From a virus: a stretch of 27,017 bases of DNA. Under the pieces are notes generated by a model. It saw only the letters and a program-made list of their open reading frames with translations. It was not told the DNA's origin and did not search any database. Position numbers and translations under genes: made by a program. Below are positions 3,323 to 13,624 of the stretch, one piece after another. Positions within the stretch are counted from its first letter, which is position 1; the number at the start of each line of letters is the position of its first letter. The stretch lies in UHGV virus genome UHGV-0430895. The stretch is one strand, 5' to 3'.

Positions 3323-3856
3323 CTATCTGTCGATGTCCCAGCACGCCAGCGCACTTTCCTGGTCACGACGGGATACCTGACCGTAGCAGTTATTTGAGCG
3401 GATACGGCAGTCTCTGCCACCGTCCTTAATCCACCAGCGAATCGCTTCGCAGGCACCTTTTCGATCACCTGCATTAATTCGTTTATAAAACGTCGACGGA
3501 AAACACTTACCGGGGCCAATGTTGTACGGACAGAATGACGCGATCCCCGCTTTCTGGGGTTCGGTCAGTGGCACTTTGATGTTTTTCTCCACCCATGCCA
3601 GCGCCTTATCACGTTCAATGCCATTAACCTGGTCGCATTTTTCCTCCGACAACTTCATGCCCGGAACGACAGGTTTACCATCCACCAGGATGGCACCGCG
3701 GCAGATAGTCCAGATACCCGCACCATCACGGTATGCCGTGGTGTGGTTACCTTCCTTTTCATCCAGAAACTGGTCAAGAATGTCAGGCGCAGAAGCACCT
3801 GCGGCAATCAGCGCCAGAACCGCAGCCGATAAACCATAACGGACTTTCTGACTCAC
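3323..3856 (-). CDS. R: SAR endolysin (T4-lysozyme-like muramidase, phage 21 R-type)
   Basis: N-terminal G/A/S-rich signal-anchor-release segment (GLSAAVLALIAAGASA), then an E...D...T catalytic motif (EKEGNHTTAYRDGAGIWT) as in P21 lysozyme. Immediately downstream of the pinholin. Confidence 0.85.
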   Translation of the reverse strand: MSQKVRYGLSAAVLALIAAGASAPDILDQFLDEKEGNHTTAYRDGAGIWTICRGAILVDGKPVVPGMKLSEEKCDQVNGIERDKALAWVEKNIKVPLTEPQKAGIASFCPYNIGPGKCFPSTFYKRINAGDRKGACEAIRWWIKDGGRDCRIRSNNCYGQVSRRDQESALACWDIDR

Positions 3857-3860
3857 CGTC

Positions 3861-4076
3861 TCACTCTCCCCGGGCTGCCTTACGACGATCCTCTCTGATT
3901 TTGAAATACAGATTAGTGAGGTATGTCAGCAAACCAAAAAACAGACTCCCCAGCACTCCAATAGCCGTCCACTGTGAGGGCGTGACATTATCCAGTATCT
4001 GAAACAACCAGTATCCCGTCCCCGCCGCCGATGTGCTGTACGACACACCCGTTGCTATTTTTTCCATCTGATACAT
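3861..4076 (-). CDS. S: Pinholin, S21-type, with dual start (antiholin 71 aa / holin 68 aa)
   Basis: [26 protein letters not shown]...[12 protein letters not shown]...[22 protein letters not shown] is near-identical in pattern to phage 21 S21-68/71. Met1 and Met4 give the dual-start motif. Confidence 0.85.
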
Positions 4077-4156
4077 GCCCTCGCCTCCCGACTGACGGAA
4101 GTCCGCAGAAACAACAGGGTCACCCGCCTCCTGACCGGTGACCTGCATATCACCCC

Positions 4157-4695: not shown

Positions 4696-6609
4696 TCAGG
4701 CTGCCGGGCTGTTCACTTCCACTGTCAGCGTGTCAATCCACGTTTCATACGTGGCTGTATTCGACGCATCCGTCAGAATAAGCGTGTTTTCCTGTCCTTC
4801 ATATTTAAAACAGGACAGCTGTGTGGTCGGGGCTTTTACCGTATCCACGTATGGCGTCACCGTGTTCTGGCCTCCTCCCGGATATACCAGCTCCAGTGTG
4901 TGCCATTCACTGTTCAGCGTACCGTATCCCGCAACACGCGTCTGCGCTGCACCATTGTGCATCAGACTGAGTTTGCCATCCGTTTCTGTCTGCAGATAGA
5001 ACGCCACCAGGAACGGATGGGTACCGTCCGCCTTATTGGCAAATTCCACACCTTCCGGGATATCGTTTTCCTTCAGCTGCAGATACATCGCCAGGGCTAT
5101 CTGTTTTCCGTTCGCACTCCCTGGTATTTTAAAGCGACAGGTGATTTTGCCGCCGTTTTTCAGCAGTTCCGCCGCATTTGCCACTTCACGGGTCAGCTTC
5201 AGGTTCATTGCTTCATCCTGGCTCAGTTTCAGCGCCCGCCCGGAAGTACTGCTTTCATCCTGTACCACTTCCGCCTTACCTTCGCTCAGCGTCCAGCCCT
5301 GTTCGGCATAAGCACCTTCACTTTCTGCACCGCTGTACAGGGTGGTAACGTTACTCTTCGGTTTTGCCGGTTCCGGATAGTTTTCCGTTATATCTCCACC
5401 GGCAAGGAACGGTCCGTTACGCCCTGCATGGGTCAGGATTGCGGTGGCTATACGGTCCGGCAGGATGCCGCGACGGGCCCAGGAACTGAAATGCATGGCG
5501 CGTGTCGGGTTCGTCCAGTTACCCGCCGTGCGTGATGCTGCACCGTAATAATTTGCTTCGGGCACATCCGGATCTTCTGCCGGGTTATTGGTCGGAACAT
5601 TCGCACCGGTCTCATCCTTCATGAGTTCGACAAAATGCACATTCGGCTCACTGTTTTTACGGTACGCGCCATAAACCAGGCTGTATTGTGTCGGGTACTG
5701 CTGCTTCCACCAGAAGGTGGTATCACCACATACCCACGGTACGCGGGCCGCATCACCACCCAGACACTGACCGGCATATGCCGCCAGATCGGTACGGAAC
5801 TGCTTCACCATGGCCGTAAACAACGCCGGATGCCCCGTGTAACCTGAAGACATACAGTCACCCTCGCCCTGCATCCAGTACACGGCCAGCAGGACGTTTT
5901 TCGCGTTCTTTTCAAGGGCGGCCTTCGTGCGGGCAATTAAATCCATGTACAACGGTTTACCCACACCCCAGCGGGAGGAATCCGCTGTTGCCCCCGTCTC
6001 CGGGTTATAGGTACCCTCATCACGATCGGTAAACGCAGAGCCGCCACGACTGCACGGCACAATCAGGATCCCCGCATTAACCGGAATATAGGGCAGAAGA
6101 CGTTTGGCAATATGCAGGCCGTGCCCGACACAACCATACTGACCACGGGAAAGGTCCGCGTTGGGGTGATTTTTGGCACTCATGTCTTCAACGTCATGGA
6201 GACAGTGATCGGCCTCAATCACATCGTTGTATTTACAGGCAGCACCACCCGGTCGGACCACACTGCGGCGGGCCAGCTGCTTAATGCGTGGATCGGGACG
6301 GTCGTAGCTGTCAGGCAGGGGCATACCTTCGCCGGTTGCCATATTGTTGGACTGACCTGCGGTGACCAGCACATAGTAATATTCAGGCTCACGGGTCGGC
6401 TCGCTCACCACCGCACCGCCTTCCTCCGGTGTCACCACGACAGGCGTGGTGACATCCCCTTCTGCGGCAATCGCCTGCATCAGGGTATAAGGGGTAATGG
6501 CGACCGGGCTGCCAAACGGCTGCCAGCCTTCCTTCAGTTTTTGAGTCAGTCGCTCCGCAAGGTCTGACGGCGACGCCGCCCTGACCACGTCATAGTGTTT
6601 AAATGCCAT
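4696..6609 (-). CDS. nanS-p: NanS-p type 9-O-acetyl-sialic acid esterase (DUF1737 N-terminal domain + SASA/SGNH esterase)
   Basis: 637 aa; N-terminus MAFKHYDVV...LKEGWQPFGSPV (DUF1737) and central GQSNNMATG esterase motif. This is the gene normally found between stxB and S in Stx phages. Confidence 0.8.
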   Translation of the reverse strand: MAFKHYDVVRAASPSDLAERLTQKLKEGWQPFGSPVAITPYTLMQAIAAEGDVTTPVVVTPEEGGAVVSEPTREPEYYYVLVTAGQSNNMATGEGMPLPDSYDRPDPRIKQLARRSVVRPGGAACKYNDVIEADHCLHDVEDMSAKNHPNADLSRGQYGCVGHGLHIAKRLLPYIPVNAGILIVPCSRGGSAFTDRDEGTYNPETGATADSSRWGVGKPLYMDLIARTKAALEKNAKNVLLAVYWMQGEGDCMSSGYTGHPALFTAMVKQFRTDLAAYAGQCLGGDAARVPWVCGDTTFWWKQQYPTQYSLVYGAYRKNSEPNVHFVELMKDETGANVPTNNPAEDPDVPEANYYGAASRTAGNWTNPTRAMHFSSWARRGILPDRIATAILTHAGRNGPFLAGGDITENYPEPAKPKSNVTTLYSGAESEGAYAEQGWTLSEGKAEVVQDESSTSGRALKLSQDEAMNLKLTREVANAAELLKNGGKITCRFKIPGSANGKQIALAMYLQLKENDIPEGVEFANKADGTHPFLVAFYLQTETDGKLSLMHNGAAQTRVAGYGTLNSEWHTLELVYPGGGQNTVTPYVDTVKAPTTQLSCFKYEGQENTLILTDASNTATYETWIDTLTVEVNSPAA

Positions 6610-6834: not shown

Positions 6835-7108
6835 TATCCATAAGAAAGCCCCTCCGGAGAGGGGCTGACGCTGCGTATCTGTATCATCATGCGCATGGTG
6901 CCGGGTGCCTCCCGGTGAGTTCAGTATCAGCACCTGAACCCGCACAGAAAGGATAAGGCTAAACGAAAACACCTGTACTGATATGCCCCGCCGCTGAGGG
7001 GGATTCACCATGCGACGCGATTTTTAACAAATTCGCAGTCAGTCAGACAATAATCAACTTGCTGAATTGTGAGGTATTTAAAAATTTCACCAGCTAACTG
7101 ATACCAGG

Positions 7109-7273
7109 CTAACCGTCTGGTGTTTTCTTTTTCAGCAACGGGAAAACAACAACCACAACACCAGCCACCAGCATCCCATCTGCCAGCACTGACATTATCC
7201 GGCTGCTGAAGTCCACCATCACGACAAGAAACAGCAGAACTACCACAATGGCCAGGCGCAGTTTTACCGTCAC
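7109..7273 (-). CDS. Candidate 54-aa two-TM membrane protein, translationally coupled to the TerB-like gene (below ORF-track cutoff)
   Basis: GTG start overlaps the TerB-like stop (GTGA overlap), with GGAG 8 nt upstream. Translation (M)TVKLRLAIVVVLLFLVVMVDFSSRIMSVLADGMLVAGVVVVVFPLLKKKTPDG, verified codon by codon. Confidence 0.45.
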   Translation of the reverse strand: MTVKLRLAIVVVLLFLVVMVDFSSRIMSVLADGMLVAGVVVVVFPLLKKKTPDG

Positions 7274-7701
7274 AGGTGATTCTCCAGACGAAGGCCCAGA
7301 ACACCGGCTATCTCTTCCAGCACCTTGCGCTCTTCCGGCTCAATTTCGCCATCTGATTCCGCAATGGCCACCGCCACATCCAGTACATCTTCCGCTTCTC
7401 GCATATCGTGTTTCACGTCCTCGATCTCACGTAACGCTGCACGACGACCTATTTTGAAGTTGGTGTCCAGCTGACCAGTGATGGTTGCGCTAATCGCATT
7501 AATTTCTGACGTAAACGCTGACAATGCAGGTTGGTTACGCAGTACCTGTTCGATCTTCGCTTTCTCGGAAGCCTCACACTCACCATCTGCATAAGCCACC
7601 AGGTATGCAGCGTTAATCACCGCCTGGGCCAGATCGCGTTTTTCAAACTTTTTAATTTCCGCTGCCGCTCTGCGGGTTTTCTTTTTGAAGATTCCAAACA
7701 T
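7270..7701 (-). CDS. TerB-like (tellurite-resistance TerB domain) protein, prophage moron
   Basis: 144 aa from MFGIFKKK. Helical, acidic, with AAYLVAYADGECEASEKAKIEQVL and IAESDGEIEPEERKVLEEIAGVLGL repeats typical of the TerB fold. Confidence 0.6.
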   Translation of the reverse strand: MFGIFKKKTRRAAAEIKKFEKRDLAQAVINAAYLVAYADGECEASEKAKIEQVLRNQPALSAFTSEINAISATITGQLDTNFKIGRRAALREIEDVKHDMREAEDVLDVAVAIAESDGEIEPEERKVLEEIAGVLGLRLENHL

Positions 7702-7833: not shown

Positions 7834-7856
7834 AAAAAAGGCCGCCAATAGCGACC
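7834..7856 (-). terminator. Intrinsic terminator (minus strand) downstream of the 68-aa ORF
   Basis: Minus-strand GGTCGC-TATTG-GCGGCC followed by TTTTTT. A near-identical copy lies at 8427..8450. Confidence 0.55.
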
Positions 7857-7890
7857 TCAGTTACGGGATTATTCTGGGGTTAAACGACTG

Positions 7891-8097
7891 TTACTCCCAG
7901 ACAAAATCATCACTTCCTGTTCGATGCGAGCCATAGTGAACCTCGTACTTATCTCCCATCTTTCTTGCTTCCGTTTCTGCGTCTTCCTCTGTCGCAAAAA
8001 CCCCAACAAGATGCCAGGGCGAGCTTCTTACCACAGCCCAACCTTTAACCCATCCTTTGTTGTCCTTATCTTCCATTAACACTTCAGAAACAAACAT
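7891..8097 (-). CDS. 68-aa hypothetical protein
   Basis: ORF MFVSEVLMEDKDNKGWVKGWAVV...; no family recognised. Bracketed by the two terminator copies together with the 8150..8374 ORF. Confidence 0.45.
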   Translation of the reverse strand: MFVSEVLMEDKDNKGWVKGWAVVRSSPWHLVGVFATEEDAETEARKMGDKYEVHYGSHRTGSDDFVWE

Positions 8098-8149: not shown

Positions 8150-8374
8150 TCAATAAAGTGGCTTCAATTTTGCCTTAATGATCAAATCAGGGTGATTGAC
8201 GGAATCGTACACCACCTCAATATTTTCATCCGTGGCGTCGATAAGATATTCTTTTACATAAGGACCTGTTGATTTTCCATGAAATACATCTTCAACAAGT
8301 ACACTCTCCCCCTGAACAACACGAAAACTAACTTCTGTTTCGAACGGACCAATCGTCACCATCAGTTTTTTCAC
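8150..8374 (-). CDS. 74-aa hypothetical protein (paralog B of 1406..1630)
   Basis: GTG start with strong AGGAGG SD. Shares the N-terminal motif set with paralog A. Located right after the tRNA cluster, in the slot where stx sits in Stx phages. Confidence 0.55.
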   Translation of the reverse strand: MKKLMVTIGPFETEVSFRVVQGESVLVEDVFHGKSTGPYVKEYLIDATDENIEVVYDSVNHPDLIIKAKLKPLY

Positions 8375-8463: not shown

Positions 8464-8540
8464 TGGCGCGTTGTACTGGATTCGAACCAGTGACCGATTG
8501 CTTAGAAGGCAATTGCTCTGTCCGGCTGAGCTAACAACGC
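8464..8540 (-). tRNA. tRNA-Arg (anticodon TCT)
   Basis: Manual cloverleaf: acceptor GCGTTGT/ACAACGC, D-arm GCTC...GAGC, anticodon stem ATTGC/GCAAT with loop CTTCTAA, T-loop TTCGAAT, 3' CCA encoded. Confidence 0.8.
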
Positions 8541-8553
8541 AGGGTACGGATAA

Positions 8554-8630
8554 TGGACCGCCATCGAGGACTCGAACCCCGCGCAACCAGCTTCGAAGGC
8601 TGGCGCTCTATCCCGATGAGCTAATGGCGG
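8554..8630 (-). tRNA. tRNA-Arg (anticodon TCG)
   Basis: Manual cloverleaf: anticodon stem CCAGC/GCTGG with loop CTTCGAA, T-arm CGGGG-TTCGAGT-CCTCG, 3' CCA encoded. Exact ends are uncertain by a few nt. Confidence 0.7.
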
Positions 8631-8637
8631 TATGTGA

Positions 8638-8713
8638 TGGTGGCCCTTGCTGGATTTGAACCAGCGACCTGGCGATTATGAGTCGCTCGCTCTCACCACT
8701 GAGCTAAAGGGCC
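8638..8713 (-). tRNA. tRNA with CAT anticodon (Ile2/Met type, ileZ-like of Stx phages)
   Basis: Manual cloverleaf: acceptor GGCCCTT, D-arm GCTCAGTGGTGAGAGC, anticodon loop CTCATAA, T-loop TTCAAAT, 3' CCA encoded. Same position as ileZ-argN-argO in Stx phages. Confidence 0.75.
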
Positions 8714-8753: not shown

Positions 8754-9812
8754 TCATCCGTTCTGACTGATAAAATCCTGAACTTCCCTGACTGTCTGCT
8801 CAAAACGTCCGGTCTCCAGCTCAACACCAATCGCCCGACGTCCCAGTGACAGCGCCGCTTTTACCGTTGAACCTGACCCCATGAAAAAATCTGCAATCAG
8901 GTCACCCGGACGACTGCTCGCACTGATTATCTGCCGCAGCATTTCTGCCGGTTTTTCGCACGGATGTTTCCCGGGATAGTACTGCACCGGTTTATGCGTC
9001 CACACATCCGTGTACGGCACCTGCGCCGTCACGCCAAAATACCGCCGCAGATGCTTATATTCACTCTGCAGTTCCGCATACTGCCGGTTCAGTGAAGTAT
9101 ACGTCTCCAGCAGCTGGTGGTGGGGCTTTTCCAGTTCACCCCGCTGATGCTTCTCTTCTGCCACCCGGGCAAACAGCGCCTGTAATTTCAGATAATCACT
9201 TTCGTCCGGTAGCTGCCACTGACTGGCACTGAACCAGTGCGACACCATGTTTTTCTTTCCTGTGGCATCCACTATCTGTTTTGCCGTTATCCCCAGGGCA
9301 GCGCGCGCATCACGAAAGTAAGCAATCAGCGGGGCCATCACATGCTGTTTCAGTGCCCTGCCCTTCGCCTCATACCCGGCATCTTTCGGACGATACGGCC
9401 CCTGATAATGTTCCGCGAACAGAATGCGCTCTGTGGCGGGGAAATACGCCCTCAGGCTTTCCTTGTTGCACCCGTTCCAGCGTCCGGACGGCTTCGCCCA
9501 GATGATATGGTTCAGTACGTTAAACCGCTCACGCATCATGATTTCGGTGTCAGATGCCAGGCGATGCCCACAGAACAGGTAAAGGCTTCCGGCAGGTTTT
9601 AACACCCGCCAGAACTGCGCCAGACACTGGTCCAGCCACTTCAGGTAATCATCGTCGCCCTTCCACTGGTTATCCCAGCCCTCAGGCTTCACTTTAAAGT
9701 ACGGCGGGTCCGTGACTATCAGGTCAACAGAATTTTCGGGTAACGACCGGATAAATTCCAGGCAGTCGGCGTTGATTAACTCACAACTGGATATTTTTAC
9801 AGTATTAAGCAT
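8754..9812 (-). CDS. Orphan DNA N6-adenine/N4-cytosine methyltransferase (beta-class, DPPY)
   Basis: 352 aa; N-terminal catalytic motif IV (LIVTDPPYF) and C-terminal SAM-binding motif I (DFFMGSGST). No adjacent restriction endonuclease. Confidence 0.8.
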   Translation of the reverse strand: MLNTVKISSCELINADCLEFIRSLPENSVDLIVTDPPYFKVKPEGWDNQWKGDDDYLKWLDQCLAQFWRVLKPAGSLYLFCGHRLASDTEIMMRERFNVLNHIIWAKPSGRWNGCNKESLRAYFPATERILFAEHYQGPYRPKDAGYEAKGRALKQHVMAPLIAYFRDARAALGITAKQIVDATGKKNMVSHWFSASQWQLPDESDYLKLQALFARVAEEKHQRGELEKPHHQLLETYTSLNRQYAELQSEYKHLRRYFGVTAQVPYTDVWTHKPVQYYPGKHPCEKPAEMLRQIISASSRPGDLIADFFMGSGSTVKAALSLGRRAIGVELETGRFEQTVREVQDFISQNG

Positions 9813-10403: not shown

Positions 10404-10946
10404 TTATCGAAATGAATCATGCATAGGTACATAAAGCATGTGTTCAGCCACGGCTAACCAACCTGCAATACGTTTCTCACATGTGCTGAAGCACCATTCC
10501 GGGTGAGTACGATTTAAACATTCTGCCATTTTTCTCTTACTCATTCCCCGTCCTTCGTACCTTTGCCGGAGAATATTGATTAGCCCGGGATATTCCCCAA
10601 GCACCTCACTGATGACGCGATCAATAATCAACGCCTCTGTGTCTGTACAATGTGACAACCAGCTCTTCTGCTTCCCTCTGGTCATATCCCGAAAAAATGC
10701 CTCAAGTTCCGGTTTATCCAGCCCGGATTTCTTCATTCTGCGTAAAACCTCATTAACTGCTGTTTTTGTCAGCTTCTTCGAAACCAGTAACCGGTTAAAC
10801 ATATTTCCGGATTTACCCCCACCTATATACGACCACCGCCCCCACATCCGTAATTTCCCCTGGATCCAGACTGCTTCCAGCGTGTTCAGGCGTAAATGTT
10901 CGCCGCTTTTGCCTGTAATTTCCGGATATATCATATTTACGCTCAC
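10404..10946 (-). CDS. Putative late-gene antiterminator (Q-like)
   Basis: 180-aa ORF immediately upstream of the terminator/late region and downstream of rusA, the canonical Q position. The family assignment is by position and recollection of prophage antitermination proteins, not by a recognised motif. Confidence 0.5.
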   Translation of the reverse strand: MSVNMIYPEITGKSGEHLRLNTLEAVWIQGKLRMWGRWSYIGGGKSGNMFNRLLVSKKLTKTAVNEVLRRMKKSGLDKPELEAFFRDMTRGKQKSWLSHCTDTEALIIDRVISEVLGEYPGLINILRQRYEGRGMSKRKMAECLNRTHPEWCFSTCEKRIAGWLAVAEHMLYVPMHDSFR

Positions 10947-13223: not shown

Positions 13224-13379
13224 TTACTTCTCAGATTCGTAGTCTACGAAGACAGCGACCTCCGTCTGGCCGGTTCGGATTCGTACCTCGCAGAGGTCTT
13301 TCCTCGTTACCAGTGCCGTCACTATGACGGTTAAACAGATGACAATCAGGGCGATTAACATCGCCTTTTGCTGCTTCAT
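13224..13379 (-). CDS. hokD: Hok/Gef-family type I toxin (HokD/RelF-like)
   Basis: MKQQKAMLIALIVICLTVIVTALVTRKDLCEVRIRTGQTEVAVF... is essentially the HokD sequence as I recall it. The upstream region is strongly structured (9-bp inverted repeat CTGTCTGCC/GGCAGACAG). Confidence 0.8.
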   Translation of the reverse strand: MKQQKAMLIALIVICLTVIVTALVTRKDLCEVRIRTGQTEVAVFVDYESEK

Positions 13380-13624
13380 AGCCTGCTTCTCCTTGCCTTT
13401 CGGCACGTAAGAGGCTAACCTACATGTGCAAAGCATGAAATTGGCCTCAGATTAATGTTAAGCGTCTTGCCGGACGCGTAATGTTAACTGGGGCTTTTCT
13501 CTGTCTGCCTTACGGTGGCATGCCCGAGGCAGACAGCCTCAAGCACCCGCAGCAATTCTACTTAACTCTCGCTTTACCGCAAACCGTTTTTACCCGATAT
13601 GGGAATCCCCATATCGCAATGAAA

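Follow-up and report, generated by a model that had tools for sequence, protein, structure and literature searches.

On the minus strand of the viral genome UHGV-0430895, of which we analysed a stretch of 27,017 nucleotides (the window), a frame of 54 codons at 7109..7273 begins on the stop codon of a gene for a TerB-domain protein. Is so short a frame a gene, and if it is, what would a small hydrophobic protein do beside TerB? TerB domains are now appearing in anti-phage systems without a known mechanism, and a system of two proteins and 197 residues would offer a convenient way to learn how TerB works at the membrane. The original prediction, made from the sequence, was of an unannotated membrane protein translationally coupled to the TerB gene. 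We asked whether the frame belongs to a family, whether it is conserved and selected as a coding sequence, how tightly it is tied to its neighbour, where the pair occurs, and which of several possible roles fits best.

The frame is the DUF3927 gene tciB

The frame runs from GTG (7273-7271) to TAG (7111-7109) and its product, MTVKLRLAIVVVLLFLVVMVDFSSRIMSVLADGMLVAGVVVVVFPLLKKKTPDG, is strongly hydrophobic, with a GRAVY of +1.48. Its charged residues are K4 and R6 at the N-terminus, D21, R25 and D32 in the centre, and K48-K50 near the end. It had been described as an almost entirely hydrophobic product with a KKK tail, too short for the 60-residue cutoff used in listing frames, and so it is. What did not hold was its status as unannotated. 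Pfam PF13064 (DUF3927) matches residues 4-53 of the 54 with 77.9 bits against a cutoff of 25 (E 5.8e-22), and PHROG 1470, “TciB-like”, matches residues 1-51 (1.1e-23). The records of P1, D6 and Escherichia phage JLK-2012 use the names tciA and tciB for the same pair; the P1 gene was named tciB in 2004, the annotation of the P1 tci genes being “by homology”. RefSeq homologues in E. coli are called “DUF3927 family protein” and “tellurite resistance TerB family protein”, their genes also overlap by 4 nt, and the extent RefSeq gives to the tciB homologue is that of the frame at 7109-7273. The identical 54-residue protein is already in NCBI, on 61 contigs, and several draft assemblies of E. coli have it in the same setting. 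Both genes therefore already have names in public data: tciB and its TerB neighbour entered the record with the annotation of the P1 genome, and PGAP, Pfam and PHROGs name tciB automatically. In the literature on TciA/TciB, DUF3927 and phage TerB we found annotation-level mentions and no functional study.

DUF3927 proteins are recognised by a length of about 50-55 residues, a basic N-terminus, the pattern D-F-x-S-(R/K)-x-x-S-x-x-x-D-G, and (W/F)-P near a basic C-terminus. All the hallmarks are in TciB: K4, R6, D21, F22, S24, R25, S28, D32, G33, F44-P45 and K48-50. In an alignment of 24 diverse members (A4), D21, S28 and D32 are each kept in at least 90%, and the signature shared family-wide comprises R6, D21, F22, S24, S28, D32 and W/F-P. 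The frame at 7109-7273 is tciB, a DUF3927 member and the second gene of a phage tciA(TerB)-tciB module. Two of our searches were less useful: an NCBIfam scan of TciB gave nothing informative, and tblastn of the 54-residue protein against the phage collection gave no match, probably through the low-complexity filter or the short query, so a DNA search was used in its place.

The partner gene, tciA, occupies 7270..7701 on the same strand, from ATG 7701 to TGA 7272-7270, and encodes 143 residues beginning MFGIFKKK. A mechanical list of frames starts it at GTG 7773; we set this start aside because the homologues and RefSeq begin at ATG 7701. Pfam PF05099 (TerB) matches TciA with 59.1 bits (cutoff 24.4), phrog_632 matches it over its full length (9.7e-69), and the TerB structure PDB 2JXU matches residues 14-137 (E 5e-8). 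Our alignment A5 shows no variation in two DGxxxxxE motifs, D39-G40..E46 and D117-G118..E124, and the hydrophobic, polybasic N-terminus has an invariant M1, G3 and K7. By profile, structure match and duplicated DGxxxxxE motif, the upstream partner is a member of the TerB family. Judged by identity, TciB is the more conserved of the two proteins: between the window and phage Pollock TciB is 53% identical and TerB 28.5%.

tciB is under purifying selection and is joined to tciA

At the junction, GTGA at 7270..7273, the GTG of tciB lies over the TGA of tciA. A Shine-Dalgarno-like GGAG (7282..7285), inside conserved Leu-Glu codons of tciA, precedes the start by an 8-nt spacer, aatcacct; related junctions have CTGGAG or CTGGAA at this position. 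The GTG overlapping the TerB stop, and the GGAG 8 nt before it, were thus correctly read in the original prediction.

We collected 8 genome loci and 80 IMG/VR loci with relatives, together with P1, D6, JLK-2012 and others, and 76 copies could be scored. The tciB frame is open in all 76, and hence is not interrupted in related prophages. It begins with GTG and the 4-nt GTGA overlap in 65 copies and with ATG and a 1-nt overlap (TAATG or TGATG) in 10; the remaining locus has a 1-nt deletion in the junction, so that 75 of the 76 starts are joined to the stop before them. The GTG start is supported by homologues that begin with ATG, whose first residue aligns with that of TciB. When the frames of the same strand were compared in 14 representative homologues, only that of tciB was free of stops in all 14. 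An overlapping frame of 99 residues, at 7005-7304, was rejected as a gene because it has stops in most homologues.

The pattern of substitution is that of a coding sequence. Pairwise dN/dS against the window, for diverged pairs, is 0.15-0.67; pN/pS is 0.27 in core residues 13-36 and 0.60 elsewhere; and the variable sites at the three codon positions number 36, 25 and 47 of 50. tciB is a conserved protein-coding gene under purifying selection, and at the codon level too the analysis sides with the original prediction.

The joining of the two genes extends to distant members of the family. P0216, P0190 and P0208, metagenomic proteins at 33-40% identity, are the most divergent members that could be placed on contigs. 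Two immediately follow a TerB gene and overlap it by 1 nt; the third shares 8 nt with an upstream gene which runs off the contig and hence is not identifiable. The gene arrangement makes the TerB and DUF3927 pair an obligate, start-stop coupled unit. Ribosomes finishing tciA would begin tciB, so that both proteins would be made together. Of the proposal that TerB has a coupled small membrane partner, the coupling stands and the idea of a partner is well founded, because the coupling is conserved family-wide; the sensor and effector roles that the proposal gave to the two proteins fare less well, and are weighed below.

The pair occurs in temperate and virulent phages

In 1.84 billion representative proteins a profile search turned up only 106 DUF3927 clusters, nearly all of 50-60 residues. 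None of the 106 is a natural TerB-TciB fusion; three long matches considered as fusions (P0127, P0159 and P0177) were rejected as chimeric or frameshifted calls. TciA-type TerB proteins are present in 130 phage genomes. Klebsiella prophages have the order Q, TerB, DUF3927 (with the 4-nt overlap), then holins, and in the virulent N4-like phages Pollock and FSL SP-076 the start of a canonical TciB abuts the stop of TerB (TAA-ATG). Temperate and virulent phages alike carry the two genes together.

A membrane partner of TerB is a recurring theme. In the Erwinia jumbo phage ChrisDB a hydrophobic protein of 59 residues, gp7, follows TerB and matches DUF3927 weakly (E 0.053). The Pseudomonas phages AF (L109 1132-1353) and Ebordelon (L112 1143-1346) have TerB with a different small protein, with a single TM helix at its N-terminus and a conserved C-terminal part, C..YG.QTERET.Y..FVGCMV, and in AF its gene shares the GTGA overlap. 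From these features it looks like a second, unrelated family of small membrane partners of TerB. In Vibrio phage K481 TerB has no such small membrane neighbour.

Of 5426 complete E. coli genomes, 1097 (about 20%) have matches to the 593-bp module, at a median of 3 places per genome; no complete RefSeq E. coli genome carries it at more than 90.9% DNA identity to 7109-7701 of the window. Many of the copies are decaying. In 48 of the 76 sampled prophage copies, which come from a few redundant EHEC-type lineages, tciA is broken and tciB and the GTGA junction are intact; the breaks are a lost start, a stop at E46 or a 5' truncation (IMG/VR loci L013-L057 and L086-L092). That tciA can be broken with tciB open in so many copies indicates that the pair is dispensable in resident prophages. 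Some 300 complete E. coli genomes (for example H82-H90) have only a 3' remnant of tciB, without a TerB gene. The remnant, also present in loci L067-L077, runs from SSRIMSVLADG onward and is without the first hydrophobic segment; RefSeq still calls it “DUF3927 family protein”. CRISPRi knock-down of tciA, tciB or tciC in P1 left plating unaffected (PMC10695390), and we conclude on this ground that the tciAB module is accessory and not essential.

The module occupies a cargo slot in a late region

This part of the window is the late region of a lambdoid prophage. Its order on the minus strand is HNH/DUF968, RusA, Q, DNA methyltransferase, three tRNAs, two small frames, tciA, tciB, STnc100 sRNA, esterase, holin and endolysin. 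The Q-like antiterminator is at 10404..10946 (phrog_753, 8.5e-75) and the methyltransferase, between Q and the tRNAs, at 8754-9812. The tRNA array, at 8464..8713 (ARAGORN and Rfam), holds a CAU tRNA of “Met” or Ile2-like type, Arg-UCG and Arg-UCU. Between it and tciA are the small frames, 7891-8097 and 8150-8374, which match phrog_4280 (2.3e-40) and phrog_2571 (1.9e-26), two PHROGs with no assigned function, and a terminator-like hairpin at 7838..7858, found by a consensus scan, parts them from tciA. Past tciB, an STnc100-family sRNA gene at 6836..7043 (Rfam RF02076, full length, 133.4 bits against 47) begins 65 nt after the stop and terminates in a hairpin at 6866-6847. It is followed by a SASA-type esterase at 4696-6609, with the holin (3861-4148) and endolysin (3323-3856) about 3 kb downstream of tciB.

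With Q upstream on the same strand, tciAB falls in the presumed late transcription unit. Consensus scans, which are weak evidence either way, found no sigma-70-like promoter between the hairpin at 7838-7858 and the ATG of tciA, and, again as weak evidence, none between Q and the methyltransferase gene. The STnc100 gene comes after tciB in loci of E. coli and Klebsiella and after stx2B in phage Min27, which makes it the constant boundary, on the downstream side, of a slot whose cargo varies; it adjoins the tciAB module and is not part of it. In many loci tciA is preceded by an equivalent tRNA array, and in the Stx phage Min27 it is stx2AB that fills the interval between the tRNA array and STnc100 (L003 2215-3455). 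As stx2AB and tciAB lie in the same interval, tciAB occupies the Shiga-toxin cargo slot. Taken with the place of the pair in the P1 ban operon and its presence in virulent phages, this position downstream of Q points to a role in lytic growth.

The tRNA genes and the early region gave some further observations. The CAU tRNA is called Met(CAU) by ARAGORN and tRNA-Ile in the RefSeq homologue, and that of P1 is Ile2 (ileX-like). TerB or tciA genes lie beside or inside tRNA arrays in lambdoid prophages, P1 (L093 14349-16009), D6 and Erwinia jumbo phages; in ChrisDB (L094 976-3367) the tRNA array flanks the tciA-type TerB gene. At 13374-13548 on the minus strand of the window, Rfam finds a sok antitoxin RNA (RF01794, 117 bits), which implies a locus of the hok/sok type in the early region of the prophage.

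Membrane topology and the proposed mechanism

Two stretches of TciB are hydrophobic, residues 7-20 very strongly (summed Hessa dG -5.0) and residues 34-47 marginally (-0.85), and hydropathy and charge together suggest a protein with two TM segments. The AlphaFold2 monomer is one continuous helix of 48 residues (3-50, pLDDT 85.6), which does not settle the topology. TciB would insert in the inner membrane, probably as a helical hairpin, and as both ends are basic (K4/R6 and K48-50) both would lie on the cytoplasmic side (N-in/C-in). The spacing of the near-invariant D21, S28 and D32, at i, i+7 and i+11, would put them on one face of a helix, near the outer leaflet. This conserved Asp/Ser face may offer a polar or cation-binding site.

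The reading we favour, and regard as on balance the probable one, is that tciB encodes a coupled membrane partner of the TerB protein, and that the two act in lytic growth as an accessory function. TciB would hold or regulate the soluble TerB-domain protein at the membrane, to which the latter would bring its polybasic N-terminus (MFGIFKKK) and two DGxxxxxE motifs of a metal-binding type. The complex would act during lytic growth; its genes would be read here from the late transcript that depends on Q, and in P1 from the ban operon under C1 control. Most likely it would sense or buffer a disturbance of the membrane or of cations, for example by stabilising the membrane of the infected cell, or by excluding other phages and colicins.

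A more specific form of this, which we put forward as speculation and think unlikely, is a minimal phage-borne device for membrane surveillance or ion handling. Oligomers of TciB would bind or conduct a cation through D21, S28 and D32, and TerB would gate them, so setting the membrane potential, the timing of lysis or the exclusion of competing phages and colicins. If true, this would define a biochemical role for the first time, both for a TerB domain and for the cargo found in place of Shiga toxin in many non-Stx lambdoid prophages.

Other readings of the pair

Could TciB act alone, as a small membrane-active protein that times lysis in the manner of a holin, antiholin or pinholin, or that excludes other phages by blocking injection, its link to TerB being one of gene order? 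Its size, two hydrophobic segments and basic C-terminus do resemble class II holins in outline, but neither Pfam nor PHROGs gave a holin match. Its position upstream of the lysis cassette in lambdoid and Klebsiella loci would suit such a role; in P1 and the N4-like phages, however, the gene is away from the lysis genes, and the window has a holin and endolysin of its own. The integrity of tciB where tciA is broken, and its greater conservation, are arguments for a protein that works without TerB. Yet in the loci examined we never found an intact DUF3927 gene without a TerB-frame ORF directly upstream, and we consider an autonomous TciB unlikely.

A second possibility, equally doubtful in our judgement, takes up the sensor and effector arrangement of the original prediction: the pair would protect the lysogen from other phages, with TerB as the sensor of membrane surveillance and TciB as the membrane-disrupting effector of abortive infection. 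TerB domains do occur in the validated Bunzi, Shango and Dionysus systems, paired with TM or pore-forming proteins, but PADLOC found nothing for TciB, and for TerB only PDC-S48 at E 0.0038. The module lies in a cargo slot of the moron type and is highly variable among P1-like elements, as a defence system might be. Its expression context argues the other way: no sigma-70-like promoter was seen between the terminator-like hairpin and tciA, and the P1 genes are behind a C1-repressed promoter. Strictly virulent N4-like phages and jumbo phages also carry the pair, and a system that purely protects lysogens is disfavoured because virulent carriers have no lysogen to protect.

The name tci suggests a third reading, a trait of lysogenic conversion that gives resistance to tellurite or to pore-forming colicins. 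The ter operons of IncHI2 plasmids confer tellurite resistance, colicin resistance and phage inhibition, and the upstream protein here belongs to the TerB family. The name, though, was given solely by homology, those neighbours that could be identified are genes of phages, with no adjacent TerC or TerD homologue found, and the arguments from expression context against a defence role apply equally; we find resistance less likely than either of the two roles just discussed.

That the tciB frame is a non-functional passenger in this prophage, open only because it is short and recently acquired, we regard as very improbable: many prophage copies have a decayed tciA or a truncated tciB, and the tci genes are non-essential in P1, but here both genes are intact with junction, Shine-Dalgarno motif and start codon preserved, and purifying selection and the motif hold across phages with 28-50% TerB identity.

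To the existing record of these genes the analysis adds the obligate coupled pair, its spread through lambdoid, P1-like, N4-like and jumbo phages, its prevalence in E. coli, its place in the stx2AB slot, and the greater conservation of TciB relative to TerB.

Comparison with known systems

The closest known relatives are the tciA-tciB pairs of P1, D6 and JLK-2012. In these a TerB protein of 141-144 residues is followed by a DUF3927 protein of 54, with an overlapping start; the central VDF(T/S)S(R/K)xMSVLADG is conserved, and tRNA genes adjoin the pair. The JLK-2012 pair is in the identical lambdoid slot, with 88% DNA identity. P1 and D6 differ in having a third gene, tciC, of 35-36 residues; no tciC-like gene follows tciB in the window or in 75 other loci scanned, and we found one in P1 and D6 only. 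P1 differs too in expression context and junction, since its genes lie in the early C1-controlled ban operon (Pban with the C1 operator, tRNAs, tciABC, trnI, ban) and not downstream of Q, and are joined by TGATG and not GTGA. In D6 (L004 2791-2904) the tciC-like frame, of 36-37 residues, MDFWTYIDKNPGWSLLFLLVIVYGVEQVAKNLRRRK, overlaps the stop of tciB and is missing from the D6 annotation; it is directly followed by tRNA(CAU), as in P1.

The ter operon (terZABCDE) likewise has a TerB-family protein and, after terB, a gene for a membrane protein, terC. TerB has been reported to associate with the inner membrane. The membrane proteins themselves are unlike, TciB having 54 residues and TerC being multi-pass, and TciB gave no TerC match at E<=1; genes for TerZ, TerA, TerC, TerD and TerE are absent from the neighbours of the pair in its phage context.

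In DjlA, which has a TM segment, a TerB-like domain and a J domain, and in YebE/DUF533, the TerB-like domain is tethered by the protein's own inner-membrane TM segment. In outline, tciA and tciB would divide such a tethered TerB between two genes. The anchor, however, is here a separate polypeptide, and TciA is not a member of either family, its matches (DjlA NF006948, E 2e-6; DUF533, E 5e-5) being weak and far below the cutoffs.

The defence systems offer a looser likeness. The TerB domains of Bunzi and Dionysus are combined with TM proteins, by fusion or as pairs, and the role proposed for TerB in Bunzi, Shango and Dionysus is membrane surveillance. They share with tciAB the combination of a TerB domain with membrane proteins. 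The pair differs in being phage-borne, in its presence in virulent phages, and in lacking a PADLOC match; no gene for an ATPase, a helicase or a pore-forming toxin is adjacent to it.

The last comparison is with stx2AB, to which tciAB is linked by position. The cargoes differ, tciAB here and Shiga toxin there, with no sequence relationship between them, but the slot that holds them is the same: Q, the tRNA array, the cargo, STnc100, an esterase of the SASA or nanS-p type, DUF1378, DUF826, holin and endolysin.
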